In this document: piece after piece, positions 2,692-51,735 of the stretch | Layout: the number at the start of each line of letters is the position of its first letter | Numbering within the stretch: position 1 is the first letter of the stretch | Source: a virus | Reading direction: 5' to 3' (one strand) | Length of the DNA: 64,000 bases | Virus record (IMG/VR): IMGVR_UViG_3300031721_000685 | Span: 11,792 to 75,791 of that record | Made by a program: the position numbers and the translations under genes | The notes under the pieces: generated by a model | What the model was told of the DNA's origin: nothing | The model's database searches: none | What the model saw: the letters and a program-made list of their open reading frames with translations, nothing else

Positions 2692-5210
2692 TGTCCTGGA
2701 GTATCCTTTTTATACTTTGCGTTCAACTCATCTGTGCCTTGCTCGCCTGCACCATACTCTTCTTCTACCATTTTAGCAAGCGCTCTGGGGTTTAGGTTAA
2801 GACTATATTTACGGATAACTTCTGCTGCCCAATAACCAACACTACGAGACCTGTCTTTGTCTCTTTCTTTTTTCACTAATTCAACAGCTTTTTTGTATTT
2901 GCCTTTGTTTAGCATAATGCCTAATTTGGATTCATCTACATCTAAAGATTCTACAACAGACGGCACAAATCCATCCTCTGCTTGTTGTTCCGAAAATTCA
3001 ATAGTAAACATTGTATCGTTAATCATAGCATTAAACGATTCAATCACGCCCTCATGCTCAACTTCTTCATTACGAACTTTAGCTGCTTTTGCATCACGAA
3101 TCCATTTTTTAGCTGCTGGCCTTTTGGGTTCTTTCTTGACCCATACTGCCATTCTTTTATATATAGCCATTGCAGCAGCATCAAAACGAACTTTAGCTGC
3201 TTTTGCATTCACCTCTTCTGAAGTGTCAATTACGATGAAGTTTCTCCCGAATTGGGTTTGGAAGCTTCCAATGTTGCGCTGTACAGCATTCCACATCTTC
3301 TCAACTTCATCTTCTGGTAATGTGCGCTCACGGGCTTTGTTGCGAGCCTGTGCAGTTTTAAGGTCTGAGTTGACGAAAATCATTGCAGTATCATAACCGA
3401 GCAATTCTAATTCGTCAGCTTGTTGTTTAATCTTACTGTAATTTTTACCAGTGCCATCAATGATAAGTCCTAAACGACCATTCAATGCGAGTTTTTGTTT
3501 TAGCCCTGTAAGTGCTACCGCACGACTACGAACTTTTTGACCTTTAGGTGAGAAAATATCTTCAGGCGTTGCTTTCAACCCAACCTTCTTCAGTAGTGCT
3601 TCGAACGCATCATCAGAATTGACTAGCTTCAGCCCCAAAGCAGTCAATGCTGTTTTACCAACAACAAATGATTTACCTGATCCTGGACCACCTGCAAGAA
3701 ATACAGCTTTGAAGATGGCTGGATCATATACGCCTTCATCAAGATCAAATTCTTCATTACGAACTTTAGCGGCTAAGTCAGCATCAGCTTTACCCCATGT
3801 ACCCTTTCCTTTTGTAATGAAAGAGTTTACACGAGCATATGCCCACTGTTCTTGAAGAGCGCCTGGGCGATGACCAGTTCTCCAAGCAGCCATACCTCTA
3901 TCATAGACCTTCTTGAGAATGCCATAAGAAATGCCAGACTTCTCTGCTTTCTTCTCTAATCCTGCAAGAGATTTTTCTACAATCACTTCTTCAAACATCT
4001 CGTTCAAAACGTCATCGAGCATATAGTCCACTTCTTCGATGAGGCCCTTTTCATCAAGTTCGACTGGTGCTGCTCTGTTGACTCTATAGCGCTTAAATCT
4101 CTGGTCGTGCTTGACTACACCTTCTTTACCAAACATTTTATGATAGCGCTTTGTGTGCTTTGAAGTCTTTGTAACAGCATCTACACTCTCTTCTGCTGGT
4201 CCTTCTCTAACCTTTGCGAGTCTTTCTTTCTCAGCTTTCTTTACAAGAGGTAGCAGTTTCTTAGCAATTTTACCAATCGCTGCCTTTTTCTTTTCAACTT
4301 GTTTATCAACTGACATTCTCTCTGACGGAGACAGTTGATCGTAATTGACGCCCTTTTTACCAGCAACTTTCTTTCTAATGATTTGAATTGCTTTTTTACG
4401 AGCACGAATTTTTAACTTCTCAGGTGATGCCATCTTCTTTGCAGCAATCCTGCGACCACGCATAATCTTAGATTTTGCTTTCTTAAAAGCCATCGCTCTC
4501 TTCTTACGAGCAGCAACACTGAGAACAGCTTCGAACATCAAGTCTTCGCCGAGTTCTAGTTCCATCTCTTCAGCAATCTTCATACCATCTCTGATTGCTT
4601 GAAATATCTTACTTGAAGAACTCTGTAGCTTCTTAGGAAGACCCGTTTTAAAGGCTCTCTCATCGCCGTCAGCAGCCGCAGCTCGCATCTTTGATGCTGA
4701 CATACCTTCTGCGCCTTCAGCATCAGGGTCACGCTCACCAGCAGAGACGACTTCAATAGAGTCGAATGTGTATTCTTTACCGTTGTATTTGTTGAGTAGA
4801 GTTTCAAACTCTGCAACTCTATCAGAGCCAGCAACCATAATGAGTTTTGTATGACCCATGTCTTCAAGCTCTTTAGCAACTTGCATAATTGTCTTTGAGC
4901 GAGACTTTGTGACCATACTACCAAAGGCTTTCTTTGCGATCGCAATCTTAGTAACATATGGCAATGGATTCTTCTTCGAATCATATGTTTGCGAAAGATA
5001 GAGATGTGGCATCGCATCATTTTGTGCTGCGATTGCGTTGATCTTAGCAACGACTTTTTCGTGCCCAATCGTAGGAGGGTTCATTCTTCCAAAAGAGAAT
5101 ACTGCTGTTGATGATACAGCTTCTTCTAACTTAGGATTAAGTTCAATCGTATTTTTTACGACAGCATCATTCTTCTTCTTGTCCTTTTTGGACTTCGTGT
5201 CGTCTTTCAT
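2688..5210 (-). CDS. Polyprotein: HIGH-family nucleotidyl(cytidylyl)transferase, basic domain, DUF5824-like domain and zeta-toxin-like P-loop kinase
   Basis: FGRMNPPTIGH and SASKMR (HIGH/KMSKS); VYDRGMAAWRTGHRPG..QWAYARVNSF; FLAGGPGSGKS, LIIDGT and ARNKARER kinase motifs; acidic LEE/LDE linkers between domains. Confidence 0.75.
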   Translation of the reverse strand: MKDDTKSKKDKKKNDAVVKNTIELNPKLEEAVSSTAVFSFGRMNPPTIGHEKVVAKINAIAAQNDAMPHLYLSQTYDSKKNPLPYVTKIAIAKKAFGSMVTKSRSKTIMQVAKELEDMGHTKLIMVAGSDRVAEFETLLNKYNGKEYTFDSIEVVSAGERDPDAEGAEGMSASKMRAAAADGDERAFKTGLPKKLQSSSSKIFQAIRDGMKIAEEMELELGEDLMFEAVLSVAARKKRAMAFKKAKSKIMRGRRIAAKKMASPEKLKIRARKKAIQIIRKKVAGKKGVNYDQLSPSERMSVDKQVEKKKAAIGKIAKKLLPLVKKAEKERLAKVREGPAEESVDAVTKTSKHTKRYHKMFGKEGVVKHDQRFKRYRVNRAAPVELDEKGLIEEVDYMLDDVLNEMFEEVIVEKSLAGLEKKAEKSGISYGILKKVYDRGMAAWRTGHRPGALQEQWAYARVNSFITKGKGTWGKADADLAAKVRNEEFDLDEGVYDPAIFKAVFLAGGPGSGKSFVVGKTALTALGLKLVNSDDAFEALLKKVGLKATPEDIFSPKGQKVRSRAVALTGLKQKLALNGRLGLIIDGTGKNYSKIKQQADELELLGYDTAMIFVNSDLKTAQARNKARERTLPEDEVEKMWNAVQRNIGSFQTQFGRNFIVIDTSEEVNAKAAKVRFDAAAMAIYKRMAVWVKKEPKRPAAKKWIRDAKAAKVRNEEVEHEGVIESFNAMINDTMFTIEFSEQQAEDGFVPSVVESLDVDESKLGIMLNKGKYKKAVELVKKERDKDRSRSVGYWAAEVIRKYSLNLNPRALAKMVEEEYGAGEQGTDELNAKYKKDTPGQ

Positions 5211-5286: not shown

Positions 5287-5745
5287 TTATAATTTTTTTC
5301 TCAAAATTCCAAGAGTTTTAAATCCATCCTCTTTAGCTAAAATTGAATCATATCCACACAACTCTAAGAATGTGGCAAAGTCTTTGCTGTCATACCAAAA
5401 CTTATCAACTGATTGAACTTTATCTCCAAAGGCTTTTTTTAATTTGATATAAATTGGTTTCAATTTAGCTAAATCTGTATTTTTAGATTTTTCTTTCATA
5501 ATCAAATTTAACAATTCTGTTATTTTCATTCTTTTTTCAGAATTTCCCACATCAAAAGTATTAGTAGGATTATAATCAATTGAATCTACTTCTGCATTTT
5601 TGCGATAATAGGCATACCCATCAGCAACCTTTTTATCGTATGAGAACCAAACTATTGGCTTCTTACCGTAAAGAGTATCACCTTTATCAAATCCTCTATA
5701 TAATTTTTTTTCATAAAATTGTTTGAAGCTTTTCATTTTTGCCAA
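5287..5745 (-). CDS. Putative ADP-ribosyltransferase-fold protein (ART-PolyVal-like) with capsid-targeting-like N-terminus
   Basis: LYRG...VWFSYDKKVA..YA...GYDSI matches the (H/R)G, F-S/T, A..Y and GYDG pattern of ART folds; N-terminal MKSFKQFYE. Confidence 0.45.
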   Translation of the reverse strand: MAKMKSFKQFYEKKLYRGFDKGDTLYGKKPIVWFSYDKKVADGYAYYRKNAEVDSIDYNPTNTFDVGNSEKRMKITELLNLIMKEKSKNTDLAKLKPIYIKLKKAFGDKVQSVDKFWYDSKDFATFLELCGYDSILAKEDGFKTLGILRKKL

Positions 5746-6962
5746 CCCTTTTGTACATCAGCAGAAAAGTTAGCATGGCTAAACTGAAGTCTATCAACTA
5801 GTTTTACAGCAGTGCCTTTCAACTTATCTACAGCAACGAAGCCTTCTTGACCTGTGACTTTGTATCCATCTTTCGTAGAGAGTAGTGTGTTGATTGTAGC
5901 TGCTTGGTCCATCTTCTTGATGATGATATCTTTGGCTTGAACAATCTTGTCCATTAGGTCGAAGATGAGTTTAATTTTTCTTTTATCAGTCTTTGTAAAG
6001 TATTCCATTACAGATGTTTGACGACCACGAACCCCAGACTTGCCCTTTTCTGTCTTACGCTTACCTTCTTCTTTTCCAAAGTAATCCATAAGATACTGCA
6101 TGAGGTCTTTCGTCAACTTCGTTGTATTACCCATTCTCTCACCGACACGAACTTTTGTGTTTAAGAATGTTTTTGTTCTCATAAGAAGTTCATCATTATC
6201 TGAGATGCCGTTGAGTGTAGCACGGTCAATCTTATTGAAAATCTTACCAGCGTCTGCTAGGATTGTTGTAATCGTAGCAGTCTCTTTTTCAGTCATCATT
6301 GCTTTGCCAGAAACGTCACGATATGCAGCATCAGTAGAGAATATACTAGATGTGTCTTTTAGATTTGATGCAATCTGCTTCGCAAAGCTAGCTTGCATTG
6401 TTTCAAATGAGTCACCCGTGTAAGTAGTATGCCATACGACGCCGATGCTGGCTCGTGCGATTTGGCGACCCAATGGAGTGTCTTTTGGTACAGCGTAAAC
6501 AATGGTATTAGGATGAAAAGTAATATGCTTGACACCATTATAGGTAATGTCTTTCGTGTCACCTTTAGTAAAGAGCAGGTCGCCTTGAATGACGCCTGTG
6601 ATACCAAGTTTCGGAAACTCTTGTAACGCAGTCTTGAGTTTATCTGCCAAATCCCCAGATGTATCGGCATCAACATCAGCTTCTGTTTTATATACCTTTG
6701 GGTTCTTGTTAAAGATACCCTTCTTGGCAACGAAAAATTTGTCATCATTTGGATCAATCCCTGCAAAAATGGCGGGCGAACCGTCCCATTTAACTGTAGC
6801 ATCAACTGTAGTCTTCGCATCGCCTGAGAGCATATCACGAAGTGAGCGTAAAAAATTAATCGCTTCACGAGCGCCATCCACACCGCCATTGAGAACGTTG
6901 TCCTCAATATGCTCCATGTGTGTATTCTTTTGTTCTATGAGGTAGGAGTTAAAGTTTTTCAT
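5733..6962 (-). CDS. RNA-ligase-like covalent nucleotidyltransferase (DUF6267-like)
   Basis: TVKWDG (motif I KxDG), IQGDL (III), QEGFV (IV), VKLVDR (V). Start moved from 7070 to MKNFNSYLIE at 6962, which avoids a long overlap with the upstream gene. Confidence 0.65.
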   Translation of the reverse strand: MKNFNSYLIEQKNTHMEHIEDNVLNGGVDGAREAINFLRSLRDMLSGDAKTTVDATVKWDGSPAIFAGIDPNDDKFFVAKKGIFNKNPKVYKTEADVDADTSGDLADKLKTALQEFPKLGITGVIQGDLLFTKGDTKDITYNGVKHITFHPNTIVYAVPKDTPLGRQIARASIGVVWHTTYTGDSFETMQASFAKQIASNLKDTSSIFSTDAAYRDVSGKAMMTEKETATITTILADAGKIFNKIDRATLNGISDNDELLMRTKTFLNTKVRVGERMGNTTKLTKDLMQYLMDYFGKEEGKRKTEKGKSGVRGRQTSVMEYFTKTDKRKIKLIFDLMDKIVQAKDIIIKKMDQAATINTLLSTKDGYKVTGQEGFVAVDKLKGTAVKLVDRLQFSHANFSADVQKGWQK

Positions 6963-6972
6963 ATTACGTTCC

Positions 6973-8088
6973 CTACAACTTAATCTTAAATCCAACACGG
7001 GTTCCAGCAGCAGATGGACCACCATATGTTGATAATCTAAATTCTTTAAATAGAGGTAATTCGTCAACAATTTTTTTATTGATTTTTAATATATTATTTT
7101 TCGAATTTACATTATATAATTCAAAAGTATCATTTGACCTATTGTGAATTACAAAATAGTCATCACCACCTTTTATAAAATGTGATAATATCATTTTATG
7201 AATTTTTATCATTAATCCACTACTTGTAGTTTTAAGTGCAGATGGTAGTTTGCCAGATTTACCCACCCCCTTATCTCCAGCATATCCAATAGTAGGGTCA
7301 AGACTTTTATAATATTCCATTATAGCATGAAATGCACCACCTTCATTACCACGTTTTTTACGAATTTTATTCCACTCATTACCTCCTTTTTTAAACACAT
7401 TTGTAAGTTCTGAAACACTCTTAATATATAACTCAGATGTACTATCCAATTCTACCTTACCCGCTTCCGACTTTTTGTTTTGTTTTCTTCTTGCAGTAAT
7501 ATCAAAAAAAGTGATTTCATTTTTTCTAGCATTAGTTCCCTTAATCTCAAATTGAATTCTTTTTCCACCAATAGTCATAACCAAATCTGGTTTTGTTGAA
7601 CCACTAGGTGCAACAGAGAATTCTGATTTAAATTCTATCCCTTCCTTCAAACACAGTTCTTTTATGTATGCAGCGCATTCTTCTTGAGTTTTTGTTCCAG
7701 CGGCAACTCTTTTTTGCCTCTTACCGCCCGGTTTTTCAACATGAGCTATCATGATATACCCATCAAAAGGTTTATCATAAGATTTTAATGATACCTTTGC
7801 AAACCATGATCTTCCTATAAGTTTATGAAGAGTTGCTGGAGCAACAAACCAAACAGTAGTGTTTGCAGAAATTGTTTTAATTACTTCCCCATTTTTGTCA
7901 ACTAAATCTGTTTGTTTTAATGTTGGAAACCCTTCTGGATATGCATAATCCTCACCAGCTACTGGTGGATAAATAGTTCTTTCTCCTGATTGGGGTTTAT
8001 CACCTCCCACTCCGTTAGGAAAATTAGCCGGCCCAAATGATGCTTCAGAGAGCGTGTTCTTATTAATAAACTGTTTTAATCCAAGCAT
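6973..8088 (-). CDS. PD-(D/E)xK restriction-endonuclease-like protein
   Basis: Upstream helix with TQEE, then KPDLVM...QFEIKG catalytic motif; visibly AT-rich. Confidence 0.6.
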   Translation of the reverse strand: MLGLKQFINKNTLSEASFGPANFPNGVGGDKPQSGERTIYPPVAGEDYAYPEGFPTLKQTDLVDKNGEVIKTISANTTVWFVAPATLHKLIGRSWFAKVSLKSYDKPFDGYIMIAHVEKPGGKRQKRVAAGTKTQEECAAYIKELCLKEGIEFKSEFSVAPSGSTKPDLVMTIGGKRIQFEIKGTNARKNEITFFDITARRKQNKKSEAGKVELDSTSELYIKSVSELTNVFKKGGNEWNKIRKKRGNEGGAFHAIMEYYKSLDPTIGYAGDKGVGKSGKLPSALKTTSSGLMIKIHKMILSHFIKGGDDYFVIHNRSNDTFELYNVNSKNNILKINKKIVDELPLFKEFRLSTYGGPSAAGTRVGFKIKL

Positions 8089-18911: not shown

Positions 18912-19306
18912 TTCACGCCACCTTTTTCTTGTTTTTGTTTGATATGACCTATCTGTTCCAATGAAAGAATCTTTAGATACTGTAGGGCAACTTTTTTATT
19001 GCAGCCATAATAACTGTGTATTATATTTATATTTTCATCATCTTCAGGCTTTGACCACTTAGCAAAACGTTTTCGGCGGCGAAGAACGTTATTGTAGTAG
19101 TCAAACTGCAATATATTGTCGAGGTGATGTAGCGTGTTCATCTCATTTGCGTGTAGTATTGCATCTGGATGATATGAGAGCGCTCTATTAGAGAGAAAGG
19201 CGTTGTAGTTTTTCTCAGCAAGAGTATCGTTCTCAGTGCCTCGCATGAGGTCTTTCTTGGTATCTGATACTGCTTTGACATAATCAAAGGGATTGCTCAT
19301 TTCCAA
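18908..19306 (-). CDS. 62: Clamp loader small subunit (gp62)
   Basis: NRALS..D....NEMN, RKRFAKW; synteny between gp44 and regA. Confidence 0.9.
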   Translation of the reverse strand: MEMSNPFDYVKAVSDTKKDLMRGTENDTLAEKNYNAFLSNRALSYHPDAILHANEMNTLHHLDNILQFDYYNNVLRRRKRFAKWSKPEDDENINIIHSYYGCNKKVALQYLKILSLEQIGHIKQKQEKGGVK

Positions 19307-20235
19307 GAGACCTCAAACATGATAGCAGTGAGAAACGCCATGATGTTGATTTCAGGATCAGCAACAAACGAGTGTTTGTACTGATACTCGCCAAGAGTAA
19401 TCACAACACCAGGAACAGAGTTATCAGACACTTCTTCCCACGCAGCATCATAGAATGCACGGAAAAACTGTGATGCATCTATATCACTGTTCTCGCCAAC
19501 CCACTTACGAACAGATTGATAGTCTTTCGCTTTCATGTAAGTTAGTAGTTGTTTAAACGATTCTTGACTTAGATTTGCTAGAATGCCAGAATCAATACGA
19601 CCAGTAGAAGCGTAACGTTGGCATTCGTTGATAACCCTGCGCCAGTCAGGAAAGTGTATGTTAACCAATTCAGCAACGACTTTACTCTCAAATTCAACAT
19701 TTTCATTCTTGAGAATGCCACAGAGTCGTTTGTAGAATTGTGATGCAAGTTTAGCTTTTTCCGCACCTTTAGTTTTAAAATCAATAACTGTGCACCGAGA
19801 ATGTAGTGGTTCGATGACACGGTTCTTGAAATTACAAGTAAGAATGAACCCACAGTTTTTACTAAACTCTTCCATAAAGTTACGAAGAGCGGGTTGAGTT
19901 GATTGAGGGTTGAGGTAATCAGCCTCGTCAAGGATGACATACTTACGGCCTCCAGTAAAGGATACTGCTGAAGCAAATTGCATGATTTCAGTTCGCAGCG
20001 TATCAATGTTACCGTTCATTGAGCCATTGATAACAATATAGTCAGCACCAAGTTGTTCGCATAATGCTTTCGCAACAGTCGTCTTACCAATACCAGCACT
20101 ACCAGTCAATAGTAGATTAGGGATATTCTCTTGGTTGACAAACTGCTGAAAAGTTTTCTTTAATTCACTTGAAAGAATCGTATCAGCAATCGTTTTAGGA
20201 CGATATTTCTGCACCCAAAGAAACTCTTCGTTCAT
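19297..20235 (-). CDS. 44: Clamp loader large subunit (gp44)
   Basis: LWVQKYRP, GSAGIGKTT, ILDEAD, SRC. Confidence 0.97.
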   Translation of the reverse strand: MNEEFLWVQKYRPKTIADTILSSELKKTFQQFVNQENIPNLLLTGSAGIGKTTVAKALCEQLGADYIVINGSMNGNIDTLRTEIMQFASAVSFTGGRKYVILDEADYLNPQSTQPALRNFMEEFSKNCGFILTCNFKNRVIEPLHSRCTVIDFKTKGAEKAKLASQFYKRLCGILKNENVEFESKVVAELVNIHFPDWRRVINECQRYASTGRIDSGILANLSQESFKQLLTYMKAKDYQSVRKWVGENSDIDASQFFRAFYDAAWEEVSDNSVPGVVITLGEYQYKHSFVADPEINIMAFLTAIMFEVSWK

Positions 20236-20584: not shown

Positions 20585-21244
20585 TTATTCTCCAAATGTA
20601 GAGTTAGATTCAATTGCAATAAAATATTTTACATTGTCCGAAACGAAGCACGATAGCCCCTTTGATGATAGATTAACCATATAATCATTCGGCATTAGTT
20701 TTAGATTTTCAACTTTGAGATACATATTAAACGCATCTGATGTCGAACCAACAACGACACCATAACGGTCAGTTGTTGGATTTTTAGAGTTTACAGCCTC
20801 CAATACGATTTCACCATTGACCCCTGAAAAGGCAATCTCTGGTAAACCAAGCACAGAAGCAGCCTTGAGAACAGACTGCATATCACTCCAAGAAATATTC
20901 ACATTTACCTCACAAACAGGCATAGAGATATCTTTTTCTGGTGGTTGTAAAATCATAGAAACATCAGCAAGAGTATATTCAACTTTTTGCTTGTTCTCCA
21001 TGATATTGATTGATTTATCATTGAAAGCAATCTCAGGTGTTTCGAACAACGATACTGTTGCGAGAAAACGAGATAGGTCATAGATACCTGCTTCAGATGA
21101 AAAATCATCTTTACCGTTAGCAATAGCCATAATAGTCTTTTGAGGAGAAATTGTTCTCAATGCGCTACCAGGTTTGATAACGATAGAAGGATTAATAGAA
21201 GAGAAATTCTTCAAGATGTCCATAGTATATTCGTTTAGCTGCAT
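20585..21244 (-). CDS. 45: Sliding clamp (gp45)
   Basis: LKNFSSIN.SI, GIYDL..FL, KVENLKL, YFIA.E. Confidence 0.95.
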   Translation of the reverse strand: MQLNEYTMDILKNFSSINPSIVIKPGSALRTISPQKTIMAIANGKDDFSSEAGIYDLSRFLATVSLFETPEIAFNDKSINIMENKQKVEYTLADVSMILQPPEKDISMPVCEVNVNISWSDMQSVLKAASVLGLPEIAFSGVNGEIVLEAVNSKNPTTDRYGVVVGSTSDAFNMYLKVENLKLMPNDYMVNLSSKGLSCFVSDNVKYFIAIESNSTFGE

Positions 21245-21258
21245 TATATAGATCTCCG

Positions 21259-22212
21259 TTATTTACGATTGCGCTTACGAGTAGCACGAGTAGTTTTAGC
21301 CTTTTGTCGTTCTTTATTTATATGAGTTTTTTTACCCTCTTTGTAGTATTTTTGGTTCGATTCGTCGCTTGCAGTAGGTGACGCACTAATAGCAGCCATT
21401 GCACCAAGGCTGCCACCGAAGATATATGAACCAACATGCTTGAGTTCCATCCAAGGACACATCCATACCTTCATACCAGCTTTACGAACATTCTGACAGA
21501 ACATATAGTCTTCTGATAGATAACGCTTCGTCTCTGGGTCAATGATACAGTCAAAGTAAGCCATAATCTCACGAGAGCCATCAAAAGCGTCTGTGCGAAT
21601 ATGGTCTGGTAGATAGTGATATTCTGGATATGCCTCCTCATATTTCTCAAATGTATTACGAGGAATACACATGAAACCAGTACCAGCTTCTAGTACTTCT
21701 ACTGGTTGGTCAACACGAAACCCCGTGACTCCCTTTGCTGGATTGAACACGTAGTCGCCAACAAAGTTCTCAAGATTAAACGGATTCTCATCAGCATGGC
21801 CCATCTTCACTGCCTTAGCAATCTTTTCCCATGAGATAGATTTCTTAGGATATGGACCTGTGATGATATCTGTATTATCTGGATCAGCCATTTGCAACGC
21901 AAGCAAGGCAAACACATCGTTCGGCTGAAAGCCAATATCGCTATCAATGAACATCATATGAGTGCAATCACTACGCATGAACTCGTCCACACAGTAGTTT
22001 CTAGCACGAGTAACAAGAGATTCGTTGAATAGATAATAAAACTTCAGTTCAACACCATACTTGACTGCCGCCATACCAAGGTCGTTGGTAGATTTAGTGT
22101 ACATGCCAGCGCATTGACCGCCGTACATAGGTGTTGCAACGAACACCTTTGCTTTTCGTAACTCCTCAACTTGAATTTTTAGTTGCATAGGCATTCCTTT
22201 CATTAGTATCAT
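21259..22212 (-). CDS. GT-A fold glycosyltransferase-like protein
   Basis: VATPMYGG, ESLVTRARN, FIDSDI (DxD), GTGFM, LSEDYMFC. Confidence 0.7.
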   Translation of the reverse strand: MILMKGMPMQLKIQVEELRKAKVFVATPMYGGQCAGMYTKSTNDLGMAAVKYGVELKFYYLFNESLVTRARNYCVDEFMRSDCTHMMFIDSDIGFQPNDVFALLALQMADPDNTDIITGPYPKKSISWEKIAKAVKMGHADENPFNLENFVGDYVFNPAKGVTGFRVDQPVEVLEAGTGFMCIPRNTFEKYEEAYPEYHYLPDHIRTDAFDGSREIMAYFDCIIDPETKRYLSEDYMFCQNVRKAGMKVWMCPWMELKHVGSYIFGGSLGAMAAISASPTASDESNQKYYKEGKKTHINKERQKAKTTRATRKRNRK

Positions 22213-22498
22213 CTTTCGCTTCCCAAACGTTTAGATGATTGTTATCATGATCATGTAGAGCTATGATAGCATAGTGAATGACCTTTGTCAAGTCATTTCG
22301 CCAATCTTCCACACTTCCTTTATGCCCATATCGTTGAGCGTACTTCATAATATTACCAATACAAAAACCAGCACCATGACCACTATCTAAAATAAACTCA
22401 GTAGCTTGATACTTGTTCTGCGAATAATGCTGGCTGTAGGTAGAGTCTACATACTCTAAGATTTCTGCCAGCAGCTTGTCTTCACTATACTTATACAT
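22166..22498 (-). CDS. DUF3310-like protein (T7 gp1.7 nucleotide-kinase-related)
   Basis: HY..., GFCIGNIMKYAQRYG.KG...DL.K..HY. Confidence 0.7.
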   Translation of the reverse strand: MYKYSEDKLLAEILEYVDSTYSQHYSQNKYQATEFILDSGHGAGFCIGNIMKYAQRYGHKGSVEDWRNDLTKVIHYAIIALHDHDNNHLNVWEAKDDTNERNAYATKNSS

Positions 22499-22515
22499 CG
22501 CCTCTACCTCTAGCT

Positions 22516-22893
22516 TTACGAAACCCCATTATATATCATTCTCTTCAACTCTGGTTTACGATAATTCGGACCCTTGAGAACTTTGCCGTCCTCACGATAG
22601 ATAGGCTTTCCGTCAATTCCTAATTTACTCATATTACTATTATGCACTTCTTCGAGGCATTTGTCAAGATCAATTCCAAAAGAATGTCCAGCACCATATA
22701 CAACGTATAAAATATCAGTCAGAGCATCTGCAACCTCAACGATATTTCTATCGTCTAATGCTTCACGAAGCTCTATAACTTCTTCTTCAATCAATGCATA
22801 GCGTAGTTCAGCAACAGAAGACCACTGTGGTTCAGTCTCAACATTTTGACCAAACGCATCCATAAACTCTTCTACTTTTTCAAAGTTAGTCAT
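22516..22893 (-). CDS. MazG-like NTP pyrophosphohydrolase
   Basis: LIEEE..EL, EVADALTDILYV, EVH.SNMSKL, REDGKVLKGPNY. Confidence 0.85.
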   Translation of the reverse strand: MTNFEKVEEFMDAFGQNVETEPQWSSVAELRYALIEEEVIELREALDDRNIVEVADALTDILYVVYGAGHSFGIDLDKCLEEVHNSNMSKLGIDGKPIYREDGKVLKGPNYRKPELKRMIYNGVS

Positions 22894-22896
22894 ACA

Positions 22897-23811
22897 TTAT
22901 TCTCCATAATTTTCAATAAGAATCATACCATAGTTATTCGTTTCGGAAAGCATTTTCATATCAGGTTTGTAGCGTAGTTTATTCTTTTTGAAAGGCCCAT
23001 AATCAACATGATGATGCCAACGACCATATTTCCAAGAAATACGAGCAACGTCTGGATGCATTTTAACGAGCATCTCTGATTTGTTCACTGTACCTACAGC
23101 GTTATAACCAATATTCTTCATATCTTCAGCTTTATCTAAAACTTCAGTGCCTAATTCTTTATGATAGAATTCCTCAGTGTTGCCACCCTTCACAGTTTGA
23201 GTGGCTGCTTTGCCTTGAAGAAAGGAATTGAATTGAATAGTACAATCGCCATCCTTTAGCACACGAAGAGATAGGTCAGTATCTTCATTATAACGACCAC
23301 GCCAACGATGCTTGCACTCATTATCAATGAGCAAGCAAGAATAGATACGAGTGTTTGTAACAAAGGGCGGATAATGCTGATTTGGAGCAATAAAAAAACG
23401 ATACTGAAAACCAGACACTGGAACATTCTCAAAACGATCTATAAAGTCTTCTGCTGCTTTGAAGATAGCGCCACTGCCGACACGAATACGTTTGTTCTTA
23501 TGTAGTCTGTAGAAGTCGGCAATATTATCATCCATTACCCAATGCTTTTCAGCACCAATAGAGATAGCATGATCCCAGCACCAGTTTCTTGCTCTGCCTG
23601 GTCCATCACCATGATTGCTGAATGGGGCAACAAGTAAGGTTACCCATTCACGAATATTGAAATTATCTAACGCTTTCTCATAATTATCTAAATCTTGTGG
23701 CTCAATCGCAATATAATGTGGTACACCGATCTTACATAAAGACCTTGAGGTACCCATAGATTCGTGTCTGCCTTTAGAAACAATATAAACTGGCTGTTCA
23801 GGATTAGTCAT
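22897..23811 (-). CDS. TET-associated/GREB1-like DNA-base glycosyltransferase (related to T-even glucosyl-hmC transferases)
   Basis: YIVSKGR, ARNWCWD, VMDDNI, YNEDTDLSLR, KGGNT. Confidence 0.7.
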   Translation of the reverse strand: MTNPEQPVYIVSKGRHESMGTSRSLCKIGVPHYIAIEPQDLDNYEKALDNFNIREWVTLLVAPFSNHGDGPGRARNWCWDHAISIGAEKHWVMDDNIADFYRLHKNKRIRVGSGAIFKAAEDFIDRFENVPVSGFQYRFFIAPNQHYPPFVTNTRIYSCLLIDNECKHRWRGRYNEDTDLSLRVLKDGDCTIQFNSFLQGKAATQTVKGGNTEEFYHKELGTEVLDKAEDMKNIGYNAVGTVNKSEMLVKMHPDVARISWKYGRWHHHVDYGPFKKNKLRYKPDMKMLSETNNYGMILIENYGE

Positions 23812-24664
23812 TCAAAAAGTTCTCCAGATTATTACCACGTTTAGAGTATGCTTTGTTCCAGTGACATCTCCATTTGCCAAAATCACGAAAGCCACCATCC
23901 TCTCTCTTTACATTACCAACAGTTATATCTTTGTAAACGATTTCAAACAAGCCAGGAAACATTTTCGCTATAGTTTCGTGGTCTCTTTGCGTATCTTCGA
24001 CAGTCTGTTCATCCCATATGACAGATTTCATAGTCTTATTATTAACACTTTTGTTCACAAAACAAAACTCTTGGCTTACTCTGTTGCTGAATCCTCGTGT
24101 GAGTAGAGATAGAAGAAATACGATATCTTCGCCGACTTTGACCTCAGTTAGTTTTAAATCGGGCAACACATGAGCAAAGTCCTTTCCGTTAATCCAATAT
24201 TGACTGCCCAAAGAAACGTTCGTTGAATAGGCTTTAATCCTAGGAGGATGTTCAATGTGACTGCATCCACACACAGTAACATCATCTTCTAGCCAAGAAG
24301 AATACATTTCAAACATCTCTAAAATATCATCAGGTGTGCATTTGCGTTTAGACTTTTTCATACTAGAGATGTCAGACCAATATTTAGTATTACGACGATA
24401 AAAAGTGATATCATCATCTAGTAGAGCGTATTTCATATCCTTAGCTTCATTGTAGATTATGTTGCGTGTCTCAGATATTGCTCTAGGATGCTCTAATGTA
24501 ATATACTCTGGTAGAACCAAATAGTCAACATTAAAATCGTATTTTTCTCGTTCCCACGACTGAACAACGAACACTACCTGACGTTTGAGTTCATCAGGTA
24601 GAGCATTGTATGTGATTTGATTGTCAATTCGATTCACAGTGGGAATGAATATCTTATCCATCAT
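23804..24664 (-). CDS. Second GT-A/GREB1-like glycosyltransferase
   Basis: IFIPT.NR, ETRN.I, LLDDDI, GEDI...L.LL..G. Confidence 0.65.
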   Translation of the reverse strand: MMDKIFIPTVNRIDNQITYNALPDELKRQVVFVVQSWEREKYDFNVDYLVLPEYITLEHPRAISETRNIIYNEAKDMKYALLDDDITFYRRNTKYWSDISSMKKSKRKCTPDDILEMFEMYSSWLEDDVTVCGCSHIEHPPRIKAYSTNVSLGSQYWINGKDFAHVLPDLKLTEVKVGEDIVFLLSLLTRGFSNRVSQEFCFVNKSVNNKTMKSVIWDEQTVEDTQRDHETIAKMFPGLFEIVYKDITVGNVKREDGGFRDFGKWRCHWNKAYSKRGNNLENFLND

Positions 24665-25029
24665 TCTTCTTCTATCCAGCGTAATAGAGAGTTAGCTGTC
24701 TTATCTAGTTTTGGATGCCAGATTACTGGGTTGTTTTTAGATTTAACTGATGGGTATTGTCCGATCAATTCGCAGAACTCGTTGTAGTCTTCTTCATTTC
24801 TAAAATGAACGTAGATAGTTTTGAACTTACCGTCTTTATTAACAGCATTCTCGAACTCGGGCATGCCTTGCCAGTGCTTTTTCCAATAATTTGGATGCGA
24901 AGTTTCAACGTCTGAAATGTCATCAACGAAGTCTTCAAGTGTTGATTCTTTTGACTCAACTTTCTCAGACATTTCTTTCATATAGTTATCGTAATCTCCA
25001 CTTTCTTTTACTGTCATTATCATCTCCAA
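24661..25029 (-). CDS. Hypothetical protein of the modification cluster
   Basis: W..HWQGMPEF, VHFRNEEDY..F..LIGQ, IWHP; translationally coupled to the glycosyltransferases. Confidence 0.6.
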   Translation of the reverse strand: MEMIMTVKESGDYDNYMKEMSEKVESKESTLEDFVDDISDVETSHPNYWKKHWQGMPEFENAVNKDGKFKTIYVHFRNEEDYNEFCELIGQYPSVKSKNNPVIWHPKLDKTANSLLRWIEEE

Positions 25030-25962
25030 TTAGAAAAAACTTTCAAGTGTTACTTTTTTATTCTTATTGTATTTCATGTTTTCAACTTCTAAATTGAAAT
25101 CAGGCATAGGTATGTTTTTCTTATTTGCTCTATCGGTTATGTCATACCAAATTAGATCAACGTCTTTTGGGTAAGATTGGTGGAACCAATCGAAAGTCGT
25201 CTTACCTATACCAGCGTCTTTTTTCGAATCTGGCATAGGTTTTAAATATTTCTTGGCAGTCTTATTGAGAGGATAGATGTATCGAAACATATAGCCAGAA
25301 ATACGTTTAATACCTTTCTTTTGCATGAAATCGGACGTTAACCAAAACACTTGTTCTGGTCGTTTGAGTTTATCCCATCTGCCATCATTCTTTTCTTTTA
25401 AGAACAAAGCGTTTTCTTTACATAGTTCTTTGGATGTTCTAGGATGCAATTTCTCACCATTTTCCATGAGATATACATCTGTAAAATATTTATTGCCAAA
25501 ATAAAAGTTGGATGCTTGATATACATAACCACATTTCCCCATGATGCCGTCTGCCATCGTGTATAGAAAAAGACACTTCGGATGATTCTCTTTTAACCAG
25601 CGAATAGTGGCAGACAACATTTGTGATTCTGAATTCCTAGGCATAGCGTCTGTCATACACATTTTACCAATCTCAAAATAGTAATTAGAAATCGGATGTA
25701 TATACTTTCCATCCTCAGTTTTCTCATTGACTTCATCTTTGAAACCAACAAACATTTTTTTAAATGTATCTCTTGGTCTTGTACCCCATCCAAGAGTCAA
25801 CGCACCTACCAAAGCACTATCTAGATAAAAACCTAAATAGTGCTTTGTGATCGCAGGCATGACAGGAGAGTAATGATGATTTTCTACGAACTGAACAGCA
25901 ACATGTTTATTAAGTTCTTTTACTTCAAACTTTACTTTTATGGTGCCTGTCTTATTTCTCAT
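25030..25962 (-). CDS. Mom-like (GNAT-fold) DNA-base modification enzyme
   Basis: FV..HHYS, LGWG, EIGKMC, PRNSESQML, YTMADG, GYVYQASNF, which match Mu Mom-family motifs; ends in TLESFF. Confidence 0.65.
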   Translation of the reverse strand: MRNKTGTIKVKFEVKELNKHVAVQFVENHHYSPVMPAITKHYLGFYLDSALVGALTLGWGTRPRDTFKKMFVGFKDEVNEKTEDGKYIHPISNYYFEIGKMCMTDAMPRNSESQMLSATIRWLKENHPKCLFLYTMADGIMGKCGYVYQASNFYFGNKYFTDVYLMENGEKLHPRTSKELCKENALFLKEKNDGRWDKLKRPEQVFWLTSDFMQKKGIKRISGYMFRYIYPLNKTAKKYLKPMPDSKKDAGIGKTTFDWFHQSYPKDVDLIWYDITDRANKKNIPMPDFNLEVENMKYNKNKKVTLESFF

Positions 25963-26030
25963 GTTATGAATAGTTTACCTTGATGATCAACCGCTTACCT
26001 TCCTTCGAAATGTTTTTCTGATTGTGTCTA

Positions 26031-26059
26031 ATAATAGCACACGGAAAGGAGTGTGTCAA
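26031..26059 (-). promoter_or_regulatory. Sigma70-type promoter for the modification operon
   Basis: TTGACA-17bp-TATTAT. Confidence 0.65.
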
Positions 26060-26064
26060 GTGCT

Positions 26065-27258
26065 TTATGCCGCAACCTCAAGTGCTTTGTCAATTTCCAT
26101 GAAGTCAGTTCTCTCAGCCTTCTTCTTTTTCTTTGGAAGATTAGCAATTACCTTCTCATATGGAATCAACCTACCACCATATACTTCCTGTTCACCCACT
26201 AGCTGTGGAATACACCCCTCAATTGTCCAAGGACGATACTCTGGAATGTTATCTTTGATAAACGGGTCAAGGACGGGCATCACGACTCTTACCAAATTAA
26301 AGCAGTTCTGATAAGCAGTCTCTATTGCATCAACAAAGGTTTGAGTGTTTTTCTTGATATCGGCAGGTTTGCGCTTCTTGCTATAGAGGATGATTCGCAC
26401 TGGGTCAGTGCGTTGTATCTTTATACATGCAGGAACAATAGCGTCTGCCATAAGACGGTCTGCATATCGCATGTTATCAACACATACAACAAATAGATTT
26501 TTATCAAAGTTACCATTAGAATCTTTCTCTTTGTACCTATTTTCCTGTGCCCATGCATCTGCCTTGGGGGTATCCATGAATATAGATAGTTCGTAAGGTG
26601 CATTTCCCAACTCAACAATCTTATTGAGAATTTCCTTTTGTGTGCTTGCTGATAGAAACCGTTCCTTATAATTCATGCGGTCTTCTAACCAAGTGAGTGC
26701 AGAGGCTCTGTCTCCATCAATGATCCCTTCCTTGATAAATTTTACACCTGTCTGGATGTAGTCATCTTTCTTATTAGTCCGTACACTACCAATAAGGTTA
26801 TTTGCCTTCTGTGCTGCTTCTATGAGGTATTGGTACACTTCTTCATCAGTGAGTCCTTCATCTGGCGTATACACTGCAATGGGAATAAATTTAGCACCAC
26901 GTTCAATCGCACCACGAAAACGGCGGCGACCATTGATTGCTTCAATATCTCCATCCTCAGTTTCCATAAACTGTGGTGGTGGACCCTGTTTAGTATCCCA
27001 ATCAAGACGAGTATAGGAATCCTGCATCTCGTTACTCGCTTCTGCTTCGCCATCATCGAAACGAATATTGTACTGTTCTAGATTTTTGTAAAAAGTGCTG
27101 GTGGTGTTGTATTGCCTGATATCCAAAATATAGATATACTGGAACGTAAAGCCAGTATATTTTGGCATTTCCATATCTAGATAGTTTGTGAGGTCTATTG
27201 TGGAATTTGCATCATTGAATGATGGAATTCGGGTGTCTCCGATAAATCGGTTCTTCAT
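26065..27258 (-). CDS. ParB/Srx-like domain protein
   Basis: PPP....DG...INGRRRF (GxxR motif) followed by a helical region; AAGGAG RBS. Confidence 0.5.
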   Translation of the reverse strand: MKNRFIGDTRIPSFNDANSTIDLTNYLDMEMPKYTGFTFQYIYILDIRQYNTTSTFYKNLEQYNIRFDDGEAEASNEMQDSYTRLDWDTKQGPPPQFMETEDGDIEAINGRRRFRGAIERGAKFIPIAVYTPDEGLTDEEVYQYLIEAAQKANNLIGSVRTNKKDDYIQTGVKFIKEGIIDGDRASALTWLEDRMNYKERFLSASTQKEILNKIVELGNAPYELSIFMDTPKADAWAQENRYKEKDSNGNFDKNLFVVCVDNMRYADRLMADAIVPACIKIQRTDPVRIILYSKKRKPADIKKNTQTFVDAIETAYQNCFNLVRVVMPVLDPFIKDNIPEYRPWTIEGCIPQLVGEQEVYGGRLIPYEKVIANLPKKKKKAERTDFMEIDKALEVAA

Positions 27259-27346: not shown

Positions 27347-27377
27347 TATTTATAACACATTATTCAATGTGTGTCTA
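27347..27377 (-). promoter_or_regulatory. Overlapping sigma70-type and late promoter
   Basis: TAGACA-17bp-TATAAATA. Confidence 0.55.
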
Positions 27378-27384
27378 GAGGTTT

Positions 27385-29877
27385 TTAGAAAAAACTTTCA
27401 AGCGTCGATTGCTCTTCAACTGTCCATCCAACAGCATCAAGAATCAAACGAATCGGCTCAACAAACGTTTTACCATACTGCATATCATAGTCGATAAAAC
27501 GGTGTAAGTCAAACTCTTTTGGTAAAATATCTGGGAATGAGATAACATTTTCACGAATGGGATTAGGCATCTTCAGATAGATGAACTTAATCTTCTCGCC
27601 GTTCTTGATTTCACCAAGACGATTGTTCAGACGATGCTGTTTCAACAGATGATTGTATAGCAGAGAGCCTCGAACATGGATGGGCGTGCCCTTACCGTAT
27701 ATAGCCTTTGCATCAGCGTTCTTTTTTATATCGCTCACACCACGAGGAAACGCAATGTCTTCTGGGTTCTGGCTTGAAAACTCTTTACGGAAGTCAGCAA
27801 TGAATGTCTGAATATCTTTGTTAGTACCAGACATAATCAACTCGAATGCTTCTTTGAAACGGTCACGGCAAATCTGAGGCGTTGAAGACTTGATAGCCTC
27901 AATGCCCATAATCTTCATCTTGGGTTCAGCGTACTGGACGCCCTCATTGTTATGAACGTTCAGAATGTAGCGCTTCTTAGCAGTCCACACGCCACGGTCA
28001 GCAATCGCTTCTCGACCCATAACCATACGATTTTCATAACCACCCATCTGCTTGTAGAGTTTGTCAAACGATTTTGTGATTACAGGCTCAATCGCTTGAG
28101 AGCAGACTTTATCGAGATATTTTACAGTGTCTTCTTTGCTGTTATTTGGGTAGGTCTTCTCTACCAAATCTTTCATATTGAGATAGACAGAATCAGTGTC
28201 AATGGCAATCACATAATCTTTATCTGTTTTCAAAACATTGTTGAGATATTTGTTGATAGACTTCTCAGCGCTTAGCACAGACAGTTGACCAGAGAGCGTG
28301 ATGCCTTCAGCGATGCGCATATCAAAGTAACGGAAGTATTGATTACCTAGCGCACCATAAAGAGAATTTAAGAGAATTTTAATTGCCATCTGCTGGTTCT
28401 CATATCGATTGACGTCACGCTCAACCTCATATGACTTGCCAAACTTCTCAAGTTTCTTCTGTGCTTCAATCATCTTGCTCTTTACTTCAACACGTTCAGA
28501 GTAGTATGCTGTAACGATAGAAGGTAGAACACCACGATGGTTTGTACGAAAATATGTGCCGTTAGCTGCCATTGCATAGTCAGTATCGTTTACGACTTCA
28601 CCAGACAGACACTTGCTGACAGAAGCATTGAAGTTTCTATCGTTCTCAACGATTGTCTCAGGCGACATATTGTATTGCACAATGAGATTAGGATACAGAG
28701 AGTTCAAGTCAAATGAGCATACCCAATCGTGCATACCCACTTGTGGGTCTTTCACATAACCACCAGGATAGTCGCTCTTCATCTTTCCTGCATAGGGTAG
28801 AATGGCAATCTTCTTTTGACAGAGGTTGCGATAGATAATCGTGTCCCAGATGCCAGTTGTGCCGAATGTATCATTGTAGTTGACGCCAGCTTTATAAGCA
28901 ATCGTCATCGCAAGTACAATCAGCCCCATCTTGTCTTCAAGACGGTCTACAAGTTGAACGTCTTTGATATTGTAATCAATAAATTTCTGATGATCTTCTT
29001 TGTAAAGCGTGTATAGATTGCCATATTCTTCATAAGACAACTTACGCTCACCAAGTACGACATAAGCAATGTGGTCTAGTCGATAAGATGCTTGTGTGCC
29101 ATATGAATAGCCAAACTTCTGAAACAAGTCCAGATAGTCTAGTTGAGAGATGCCAGTCATCTCATACGTATTCATTTCTTTCATCTTGTAGCGAACAGAT
29201 TTCTGCTCAACCATCTCCCACGGAGACATTTTCTTTGTTAGCTTTTCGCCAATCACACGATGCATACGATTGATGATGTATGGCACATCGAAGAATCGAA
29301 CGTTCCAACCCGTGACAACATCTGGCTTCAGATTTGACCAGAACAGCAAAAACTTCTCAAGTAATTCCTTCTCATCACGACAGTACATATACTGAACTTT
29401 AGAAACAATCGACTTTGATGTATCATATTCGCCGAGACCCCAGACATAGTAGTTCTCATCTTTGTTAGACTTGAGAGCAATAGAGATTACTGGGTGATTT
29501 GCTTGGTCTGGCTCTGGGAAGCCCTCGTCAGATGCGACTTCAATATCAATATTCACAATGTTGACTAGATTTGAATCAAACTCGACCTCATCAGGCCAGC
29601 GTTCTTGAATGTATTGACTAATATATTTTGTGTTGCCATAGACGTTGAACCCATCGACACCGGTGTACATCTCCATGAACTGCTTTGCTTCACGCATAGA
29701 GTCGAACTTCATGGGTTCTACGTTGACGCCATCAAGGGCTTTCCAGTCGCTCTCATTCTGCGATTGAGCATAGAGTGTGGGCTGAAACTTAATCTTCTGC
29801 TGAATGGGCGACCCGTTACGATACCCACGATATAGAAGGTTCTGACCGTAACGTGAGACATTTGTATAGAAGTTCAT
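27385..29877 (-). CDS. 43: Family B DNA polymerase (gp43)
   Basis: DIEV, GWN..FD, YN..D exonuclease motifs; FDLNSLYP, KILLNSLYG, IDTDS, KKRY. No intein or intron seen. Confidence 0.98.
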   Translation of the reverse strand: MNFYTNVSRYGQNLLYRGYRNGSPIQQKIKFQPTLYAQSQNESDWKALDGVNVEPMKFDSMREAKQFMEMYTGVDGFNVYGNTKYISQYIQERWPDEVEFDSNLVNIVNIDIEVASDEGFPEPDQANHPVISIALKSNKDENYYVWGLGEYDTSKSIVSKVQYMYCRDEKELLEKFLLFWSNLKPDVVTGWNVRFFDVPYIINRMHRVIGEKLTKKMSPWEMVEQKSVRYKMKEMNTYEMTGISQLDYLDLFQKFGYSYGTQASYRLDHIAYVVLGERKLSYEEYGNLYTLYKEDHQKFIDYNIKDVQLVDRLEDKMGLIVLAMTIAYKAGVNYNDTFGTTGIWDTIIYRNLCQKKIAILPYAGKMKSDYPGGYVKDPQVGMHDWVCSFDLNSLYPNLIVQYNMSPETIVENDRNFNASVSKCLSGEVVNDTDYAMAANGTYFRTNHRGVLPSIVTAYYSERVEVKSKMIEAQKKLEKFGKSYEVERDVNRYENQQMAIKILLNSLYGALGNQYFRYFDMRIAEGITLSGQLSVLSAEKSINKYLNNVLKTDKDYVIAIDTDSVYLNMKDLVEKTYPNNSKEDTVKYLDKVCSQAIEPVITKSFDKLYKQMGGYENRMVMGREAIADRGVWTAKKRYILNVHNNEGVQYAEPKMKIMGIEAIKSSTPQICRDRFKEAFELIMSGTNKDIQTFIADFRKEFSSQNPEDIAFPRGVSDIKKNADAKAIYGKGTPIHVRGSLLYNHLLKQHRLNNRLGEIKNGEKIKFIYLKMPNPIRENVISFPDILPKEFDLHRFIDYDMQYGKTFVEPIRLILDAVGWTVEEQSTLESFF

Positions 29878-29900
29878 GCATATCTCCAAAGTGAATAGAC

Positions 29901-37815: not shown

Positions 37816-37898
37816 GTTTGCTCCATATTTTTTCAAAAATTAAAAAAAAGCGCTAGACATTTGATGAGAAGCACTTATATTATATTTATATGATAAAG

Positions 37899-39284: not shown

Positions 39285-39330
39285 TTTAGAAGATTCTCCT
39301 TAACTAAGAATATTTATTTAACTATTTATA

Positions 39331-50942: not shown

Positions 50943-50947
50943 AAATC

Positions 50948-51688: not shown

Positions 51689-51735
51689 GCAAGACTCCTG
51701 TTATTTTCTTTTTATTTATAAGAATTCATTATGTA

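Follow-up and report, generated by a model that had tools for sequence, protein, structure and literature searches.

What do the transferases encoded in the replisome operon of a marine T4-like phage act upon, and do they serve a single pathway or several? The question is raised by a stretch of 64,000 nucleotides of IMG/VR virus record IMGVR_UViG_3300031721_000685 (positions 11,792 to 75,791; hereafter the window), in which eight genes separate that of the DNA polymerase gp43 from that of the sliding clamp gp45. Read from gp43, these encode p397, a Mom-like GNAT enzyme, the small protein p122, two TAGT-type glycosyltransferases (TAGT_B and TAGT_A), a MazG-type pyrophosphohydrolase, a DUF3310 protein and GT317, a putative glycosyltransferase (Table 1). 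The window is part of a 75.8-kb viral contig with a CheckV completeness of 42%. The contig is that of an uncultured, marine T4-like myovirus: by tblastn, its gp43 shares 53% identity with the polymerase of phage C48C1 (Kyanoviridae) and about 49% with cyanomyovirus polymerases. A megablast search with the 6-kb stretch returned no match among cultured phages. The minus-strand gene order, as assigned with PHROGs, is helicase, gp55, gp47, gp46, gp43, the eight genes, gp45, a small open reading frame (ORF), gp44, gp62 and regA. The original prediction, made from the letters alone, listed these eight genes as a DNA hypermodification cluster inside the replisome operon; all eight ORFs were recovered, each on the minus strand, and enzymes of DNA-modification families (Mom, PF25680; the two TAGTs, PF20691) do lie between gp43 and gp45.

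We propose that the window encodes at least two independent clamp-based DNA-modification modules, which act on newly replicated DNA and are inserted among conserved replisome-neighbour genes, and we hold this explanation to be probable, though with no more than moderate confidence. In the first module, the Mom-like GNAT enzyme would transfer an aminoacyl group from a charged tRNA to N6 of adenine in duplex DNA, by analogy with the Mom protein of phage Mu, and would dock on gp45 via a C-terminal TLESFF peptide identical to that of the polymerase. In the second, p122 and TAGT_A, as accessory and catalytic domains of a split TAGT, would add a first sugar. This sugar would be extended or tailored by whatever enzyme a variable gene slot encodes (in this phage TAGT_B with its clamp tail), much as the TAGT of T2/T6 attaches a second glucose. 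The most likely acceptor would be a hydroxylated pyrimidine, whose synthesis would depend on a gene in the part of the genome that the contig does not cover. Family memberships, the tails with their distribution and the fusion of the p122 domain to TAGT are shown by the sequences, whereas clamp binding, the sequence in which sugars are added, the base that accepts them and the source of the aminoacyl group are inferred.

The C-terminal tails make the strongest case for an action of the Mom-like enzyme and TAGT_B on DNA at the clamp. In the window, gp43 ends in STLESFF, the Mom-like protein in VTLESFF and TAGT_B in NLENFLND; for comparison, T4 gp43 ends in SLDFLFG and T4 gp55 in SLDFLYEAND. A terminal peptide of this kind is what binds the gp45 clamp in T4 and RB69, and the C-terminal tails of these phages were reportedly described as clamp-binding by Berdis in 1996 and by Shamoo and Steitz in 1999. 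As in gp43, gp55 and gp33 of T4 and RB69, the tail is a hydrophobic and acidic peptide, (S/T)L(D/E)xF(F/L), at the extreme C terminus, and is common to the polymerase and to other clients. The motif occurs 10 times in the 23,794 residues encoded by the contig, and three of these occurrences are C-terminal, where 0.2 would be expected. In a census of 2053 ORFs from 135 related IMG/VR loci, the tail was present in gp43 (14/15), Mom-like proteins (31/39), TAGT_B homologues (11/11) and TET/JBP proteins of the C48C1 type (15/16), and absent from gp46 (0/75), p122 (0/72), TAGT_A (0/80), DUF3310 proteins (0/40), GT317 (0/57), gp45 (0/66) and gp44 (0/59). A further 24 tail-bearing ORFs fell outside the labelled families; ten representatives were scanned with Pfam, giving four N6/N4 DNA methylases, one HNH endonuclease, one GNAT protein encoded beside a TET gene and four proteins without a Pfam family. 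The tails of one contig resemble the tail of its own polymerase, as in the pairing of ATLEDFFG with SLEEFFG. On this census, and as far as sequences can tell, the tail specifically marks those enzymes of the clade that are directed at DNA. Its presence on the Mom-like enzyme and TAGT_B in the form found on the polymerase argues for DNA, and not lipopolysaccharide (LPS) or protein, as their target, and suggests that both bind gp45.

A precedent is the alpha-glucosyltransferase of T4, a DNA glucosyltransferase documented to bind gp45 (PMC13216743), but this enzyme, unlike TAGT_B, has no such terminal peptide. Also unlike T4, the window phage has the tail on an enzyme of Mom type and on a TAGT; relatives have it on TET/JBP proteins and DNA methylases. 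In the complete genome of C48C1, a Dam-type D12 N6-adenine methylase ending in STLDAFFG is encoded directly after gp43 (L129:11492-12376), the polymerase itself ending in ATLEDFFG, and a TET/JBP protein of 472 residues ends in SLEEFFV. It was also seen that the C48C1 TET/JBP gene is followed by a 344-residue ORF and then by a gene for UDP-galactopyranose mutase (L135:5584-9031; record positions 49583-53030), a locus which is a candidate for a clamp-coupled pathway to a base carrying galactofuranose. Several small tail-ending proteins without a Pfam family, of 116-221 residues (L054:12772-13356, L143:12498-13145, L120:10938-11603 and L138:4824-5174), are candidate DNA-acting clamp clients.

The shared peptide could instead be a tag for degradation, localisation or assembly, or be left over from recombination of adjacent genes, in which case the enzymes would not be coupled to the replisome. 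A tail-bearing gene lies just downstream of gp43 in several contigs, so that local duplication of a gene end is conceivable, gp55 of the window phage does not fit the motif as searched, and clamp binding is here a prediction from sequence. However, the tail is present on unrelated families at varied positions; in C48C1, for example, some 17 kb separate the TET/JBP gene from gp43. The peptide is conserved as protein sequence, in contrast to the variable linker preceding it, and both its position and its chemistry match the tail of T4 gp43 and gp55, for which binding to the clamp is established. We consider a non-docking origin of the tail very unlikely.

The first of the two proposed modules depends on the identity of the Mom-like enzyme. 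This protein of 310 residues scores well above the gathering threshold of PF25680 (165.5 bits versus a cut-off of 27.1; residues 12-242). In an alignment of the window protein with Mu Mom and five marine homologues, the GNAT core residues H58, Y59, S124, D149 and Y159 of Mu Mom are invariant (alignment numbering is that of PMC13219725, from which the residue roles are taken, minus 10). R111 and R151 of Mu Mom are replaced by lysine and isoleucine, respectively, in the window protein and in all of the marine homologues, and a conserved lysine follows at a distance of three residues. In Mu, Mom takes glycine from Gly-tRNA(Gly) and attaches it to adenine of duplex DNA at N6, and the product rearranges to N6-carbamoylmethyl-deoxyadenosine; R111, S124 and R151 are essential for this reaction, and D149, H58, Y59 and Y159 are important (PMC13219725). 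The window enzyme is, from profile and alignment, a member of the Mom family with a modified active site, and the replacement of the two catalytic arginines suggests that its donor or its product may differ from that of Mu. Like Mu Mom it is a phage enzyme, and it may likewise be expected to modify duplex DNA after replication. Unlike Mu Mom, to which it is only about 27-29% identical, it does not retain the dimer residue W48 or W181, and has a C-terminal extension of 60-70 residues that ends in the polymerase clamp tail. The genetic setting differs as well, since Mu mom belongs to the late com/mom unit, whereas the Mom-like gene of the window is in the early-type replisome operon of a lytic T4-like phage. 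Homologues that are 50-63% identical to the window protein are widespread in marine T4-like contigs, where their genes usually adjoin gp43, gp45 or gp44.

The second module is formed by p122, TAGT_A and TAGT_B. Both TAGTs exceed the PF20691 cut-off of 27.5 bits (149.4 bits for TAGT_A and 44.9 bits for TAGT_B), and the DD and ED motifs (D94-D95 and E176-D177) are invariant in proteins of the TAGT_A and TAGT_B types and in fused TAGTs. In these respects the window enzymes are like the beta-glucosyl-HMC-alpha-glucosyltransferase of T2/T6, the one characterised TAGT, which works on DNA (PMC13216743). The occurrence of two TAGT-type enzymes in the window suggests a stepwise addition of sugars, as in gentiobiosyl-hydroxymethylcytosine. 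Unlike in T2/T6, no alpha- or beta-glucosyltransferase, dCMP hydroxymethylase or TET/JBP gene was detected in the window contig, TAGT_A is paired with p122, a separate protein corresponding to an N-terminal domain, and TAGT_B is clamp-tailed. Of 79 loci, 71 have p122 together with TAGT_A. The last 70 residues of p122 match the N-terminal domain of the 399-residue TAGT of Aeromonas phage Aeh1 (33% identity, E=2e-6 by BLASTP), and its WxGMPEF motif is also found at the N terminus of the TAGT of Paraglaciecola phage GD1. A search for longer homologues of p122 gave none; the fused forms emerged from a full hidden Markov model scan of 1.84 billion representatives, in which the p122 profile matched 2515 proteins, and all four matches that had the domain near the N terminus and were scanned with Pfam carry it fused to PF20691. 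The domain itself corresponds to no Pfam family, and the protein atlas gave only unnamed viral clusters. Because its domain is elsewhere fused to PF20691, p122 is best described, from these relationships, as a split N-terminal accessory domain of TAGT.

The p122/TAGT_A pair is accompanied by a position of changing content, which lies between the two genes or directly after TAGT_A. In nine loci it holds a second TAGT that is 33-81% identical to TAGT_B, in 20 a class-I S-adenosylmethionine (SAM) methyltransferase, in five an FkbM-type methyltransferase and in eight a 354-residue ORF without an assigned family. In locus L049, the counterpart of TAGT_B is only 35% identical, though the neighbouring genes there are 86-93% identical to those of the window. 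This arrangement has the appearance of a first transferase that is conserved, next to a position at which tailoring diversifies. TAGT_A is 70-88% identical in at least 80 loci, among 191 IMG/VR stretches encoding a relative, and the same loci, the closest relatives aside, have gp45 that is 31-47%, gp46 that is about 40-64% and gp44 that is 50-65% identical; in being far more conserved than the replisome proteins, TAGT_A is unlike the TAGTs of known systems. As a separate observation, strong constraint or recent spread could explain a conservation above that of the clamp, the clamp loader and gp46 (loci L043-L122). Two further C termini were considered as possible clamp tails and rejected: NSLLRWIEE of p122, as this segment lies inside the protein in the fused TAGT of Aeh1, and KL[IV]xN[FWY] of TAGT_A, as it has a single aromatic residue, is lacking in a subset of homologues and matches the motif in none of 80 proteins.

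That the modules are separate was observed in related genomes. IMG/VR was searched with the Mom-like protein and TAGT_A, and all window proteins were mapped onto the 120 loci returned. Four records in which the replication module is covered (G001-G003 and G005, 29-62% complete) have TAGT without Mom, and one record (G004, 64% complete) and the complete genome of the Mom-carrying Melnitz phage have Mom without TAGT. As Mom-like and TAGT genes occur without each other, they are independently distributed, and the genes are separate modules with different distributions. The idea, put forward in the original prediction, of one cluster making a single acylated and glycosylated base with nucleotide-pool editing is therefore not supported, since Mom and TAGT are independent, GT317, DUF3310 and MazG are widespread neighbours of gp45 and gp44, and p397 is lineage-specific. 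The same holds for a linear pathway in which the Mom-like enzyme would place an aminoacyl-derived adduct, for example one from a hydroxy amino acid, on adenine, and the TAGTs and GT317 would glycosylate the adduct to yield an acylated, multiply glycosylated purine. Such a pathway would suit the adjacency and common orientation of the genes in the window and in loci L003 and L049, the changes at R111 and R151, possibly a sign of a different donor, the clamp tails on both the Mom-like enzyme and TAGT_B, and a contig in which no pyrimidine-hydroxylating enzyme is visible. However, besides the TAGT-only and Mom-only genomes, there are many contigs in which the Mom-like gene adjoins gp43 or gp44 and the locus lacks a TAGT, and the fused-TAGT phages Aeh1 and GD1 are not among the Mom matches listed. 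We regard the linear pathway as the least probable of the explanations considered here, and as a highly improbable one.

If the second module glycosylates DNA, an acceptor is needed, and the observation in the original prediction that no acceptor-making enzyme is visible was upheld when the search was widened to the whole 75.8-kb contig: no match was found there to PF00303 (thymidylate-synthase-like), PF02511 (ThyX) or PF12851 (TET/JBP). The 5-hydroxy-dCMP synthase of Mosigvirus (PMC13390438) would fall into the thymidylate-synthase-like class, as would dCMP/dUMP hydroxymethylases. The search does detect TET/JBP genes in the complete relatives C48C1 and Melnitz. With the contig 42% complete, the absence of acceptor-making genes is weak evidence. 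The TET/JBP protein of C48C1 type was considered as a partner of TAGT and rejected, with TAGT found in 0/11 contigs of the C48C1 type and TET in 0/10 TAGT or Mom records. Just upstream of the window, we noted a gene for a 345-residue protein (G000:C1:7857-8894, L130) that combines a 2-oxoglutarate-Fe(II) oxygenase domain (PF13640) with DUF6817 and adjoins nrdA and nrdB; it is of a common marine-phage gene type, and nothing ties it to DNA.

Several observations weigh against the proposal of two clamp-based modules. The substitutions R111K and R151A cripple Mu Mom (PMC13219725), and the window enzyme has lysine and isoleucine at these positions. Clamp binding by the tails is deduced from the peptides. 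TAGT_A, p122 and GT317 are tailless, and for them DNA as a target is suggested only by family, position and adjacency. Genes of the thymidylate-synthase-like, ThyX and TET/JBP types were not found in ten related records either, each at most 64% complete, of which nine carry TAGT_A and one carries Mom alone. In Aeh1 and GD1, the phages with fused TAGTs and complete genomes, only a single strongly ThyA-like gene apiece and nothing of the TET/JBP type was found, and the carriers of TET/JBP (C48C1, Melnitz and the contigs of C48C1 type) are without TAGT. Methyltransferases of FkbM or small-molecule type, as found in the variable slot, are more typical of the tailoring of protein or polysaccharide glycans. 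The gene content of Aeh1 and GD1 leaves the hydroxylated-pyrimidine acceptor without direct support, and with the usual sources of hydroxylated pyrimidines unconfirmed for this TAGT lineage, an unconventional acceptor is possible. In that case, p122/TAGT_A, which ranks with the best-conserved genes in a very abundant group of aquatic T4-like phages, would glycosylate DNA at an acceptor that is not made by a thymidylate-synthase-like or TET/JBP enzyme, and which could be a canonical base or a new adduct. The enzymes of the variable slot would go on to elaborate DNA glycans of diverse structure, even O-methylated ones, at the clamp; we consider this unlikely.

The same observations bear on the alternative in which the glycosyltransferases (TAGT_A with p122, GT317 and perhaps TAGT_B) modify host LPS or another surface structure, or phage or host proteins, and the Mom-like enzyme alone touches DNA. 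Glycosyltransferases of pelagimyophages have been read as O-chain modifiers (PMC7029224), and the closest folds of GT317 include the protein glycosyltransferases LH3, ColGalT1 and ppGalNAc-T as well as the mimivirus protein R699. To these may be added the methyltransferases that can occupy the slot beside TAGT_A, the contig and ten partial records in which no acceptor-making enzyme was found, and the lack of a clamp tail on TAGT_A and GT317. On the other side, every TAGT_B homologue in the census is polymerase-tailed, most tail-bearers being gp43 or members of DNA-modifying families, and TAGT_B is located between p122 and TAGT_A, within their unit. Moreover, the T2/T6 TAGT acts on DNA, and the genes are in the replisome operon and not in the tail-fibre and host-recognition region discussed in PMC7029224. 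We judge a non-DNA target of the glycosyltransferases to be rather unlikely, and favour DNA modification by two clamp-based modules.

The genes for GT317, MazG and DUF3310 are better viewed as the surroundings into which these modules are inserted. GT317 has no significant Pfam match, no family being above its cut-off, and a search of PDB sequences with its profile gave nothing significant. Its AlphaFold model, built from a 28-sequence alignment, has a pLDDT of 84.8 and a pTM of 0.82, and Foldseek matched the model to 121 PDB chains at E<=0.001; nearly all of the 40 listed are GT-A enzymes, headed by A197 of STIV (E=9e-8) and followed by mimivirus R699, the LH3 glycosyltransferase domain, ColGalT1 and GlfT2. 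DSD (D90-S-D92) and ED (E234-D235) motifs are invariant among its homologues, so that, from modelled fold and DxD motif together, GT317 is identified as a GT-A-fold glycosyltransferase. It has more than 8000 protein clusters and is syntenic just upstream of gp45, often with one small ORF between. The cultured phages phiM12 and DLP6 have it at the same position, and homologues are found in Cr30 and an Ochrobactrum phage; none of these four phages gave a TAGT match, and the absence from phiM12 was confirmed separately. The MazG/PRA-PH protein scores 73.6 bits against a PF01503 cut-off of 21.3; its position varies among related loci, and it is a common gene of this phage clade. DUF3310 adjoins gp45 in many related loci. 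In some relatives (L055:16684-17040), the slot between GT317 and gp45, where other loci have DUF3310, holds a 118-residue protein with a dATP/dGTP diphosphohydrolase N-terminal domain (PF18909, dGTP_diPhyd_N, E=2e-34). The 'DsbA' gene in a similar slot of DLP6 was considered as a counterpart of the DUF3310 protein, and no similarity was seen. The description of the DUF3310 protein as kinase-like was not borne out, as it goes back only to the PHROG names of larger proteins that contain the small domain. GT317, MazG and DUF3310 are thus widespread genes of the clade, and their link to the modification modules is unproven.

For p397, the ParB-like label given from the sequence is moderately supported. 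It is favoured by an invariant G110-R111-R112-R113 box within NGRRRxRGA and by fold matches: the top Foldseek matches are all N-domains of ParB, Noc and KorB proteins, at modest E-values of 0.02-0.1 for a model of pLDDT 72, and by VIA the same model aligns with pNOB8 ParB-N and KorB at a modest Z of 6.0 (root-mean-square deviation 3.8, 149 aligned residues). Against it, p397 fails the Pfam ParB model (PF02195), has no Pfam match at E<=0.01, and reaches only 15 bits with TIGR00180 (E=0.016), below the cut-off of 58. A PDB sequence search gave nothing significant, and the C-terminal half is additional and without a recognisable fold. ParB-fold proteins are known to activate a subclass of phage thymine dioxygenases, the 5mYOX/ParB pairs (PMC13229309). 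Like these systems, the window has a putative ParB-fold protein among DNA-hypermodification genes, with the arginine-rich NTP-binding box kept. Unlike them, it has no 5mYOX/TET gene adjacent to p397 or elsewhere in the contig, and p397 has its extra C-terminal half and a late-promoter box. p397 is also dispensable in a close relative, given that in L049, where the Mom-like protein is 93% identical, two unrelated ORFs replace it. Its distribution is confined to near-identical relatives, with 16 protein clusters that are without exception metagenomic. In our model p397 would be a lineage-specific ParB-fold protein driven by a late promoter. The T4-type late-promoter box TATAAATA, one copy of which lies just upstream of p397, has 17 copies in the window, where 5.5 would be expected, and almost all of them are on the minus strand and before structural genes; further sites are at 21315-21322 (inside the 3' end of GT317, ahead of gp45), 37883-37890 and 39323-39330. 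A common palindromic operator flanking p397 was considered and found unsupported, as inverted repeats occur on both sides but their common pattern matched only once, as by chance. The repeats themselves, CACAC-N8-GTGTG at 26038-26055 and ACACATT-N4-AATGTGT at 27355-27374, overlap promoter-like sites.

Elsewhere in the window, positions 2688-5210 encode an 840-residue protein with an N-terminal part resembling a PHROG 'cytidyltransferase', followed by DUF5824 and a P-loop kinase domain of the zeta-toxin/AAA_33 type, and the adjoining gene at positions 5733-7070 encodes a DUF6267 protein of 445 residues.

Table 1 Features of the gp43-gp45 region, given in window coordinates and in the order of minus-strand transcription.
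Feature	Position	Strand	Basis
gp43 DNA polymerase	27385..29889	-	PHROGs; tblastn 49-53% identity to T4-like polymerases
gp43 C-terminal TLESFF, reference clamp-binding tail	27388-27405	-	read from translation
TATAAATA, T4-type late-promoter box just upstream of p397	27347..27354	-	sequence match
p397	26065..27258	-	lineage-specific, ParB/Srx-like N-terminal domain
Sigma-70-like promoter TTGACA-17-TATTAT, ahead of Mom-like gene	26031..26059	-	consensus scan, 11/12; pattern match only
Mom-like GNAT, 310 residues	25030..25962	-	PF25680 E=1.6e-48
Mom-like C-terminal TLESFF, identical to gp43 tail	25033-25050	-	read from translation
p122, predicted stand-alone TAGT N-terminal accessory domain	24661..25029	-	BLASTP/profile link to fused TAGTs
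TAGT_B, variable second TAGT glycosyltransferase	23804..24664	-	PF20691 E=1.6e-11; phrog_842
TAGT_B tail NLENFLND	23807-23830	-	read from translation
TAGT_A, conserved core TAGT glycosyltransferase	22897..23811	-	PF20691 E=1.7e-43; phrog_842
MazG/PRA-PH-type NTP pyrophosphohydrolase	22516..22893	-	PF01503 E=1.8e-20; phrog_671 E=4e-42
DUF3310 protein	22166..22498	-	PF11753 E=1.6e-10
GT317, predicted GT-A-fold glycosyltransferase, Lys/Arg-rich C-terminal tail	21259..22212	-	AlphaFold model and Foldseek
gp45 sliding clamp, presumed docking partner of the tails	20585..21244	-	phrog_223 E=5e-73
gp44	19297-20235	-	PHROGs

To our knowledge, Mom-type adenine modification and TAGT-type DNA glycosylation have been known mainly from a few model coliphages. 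Our results indicate that genes of both types are common equipment of uncultured aquatic T4-like phages, within the replisome operon. Mom, TAGT and clamp-client tails are of kinds already known; what is new here is a Mom-type enzyme that ends in a clamp tail, a TAGT that is split and has its accessory domain defined, and a tailoring slot of variable content. The polymerase-type tail may serve as a simple sequence mark to distinguish phage transferases acting on DNA from those acting on LPS or protein, a question which was left open for the glycosyltransferases of pelagimyophages and for the 'solitary TAGTs' that were found in 288 of 753 phage genomes and left unexplained (PMC13216743). A coupling of both adenine modification and glycosylation to the replication clamp is predicted from the tails, and the split TAGT, its accessory domain and the variable slot together form a defined, testable unit that may lead towards a new DNA glycan and a new acceptor.

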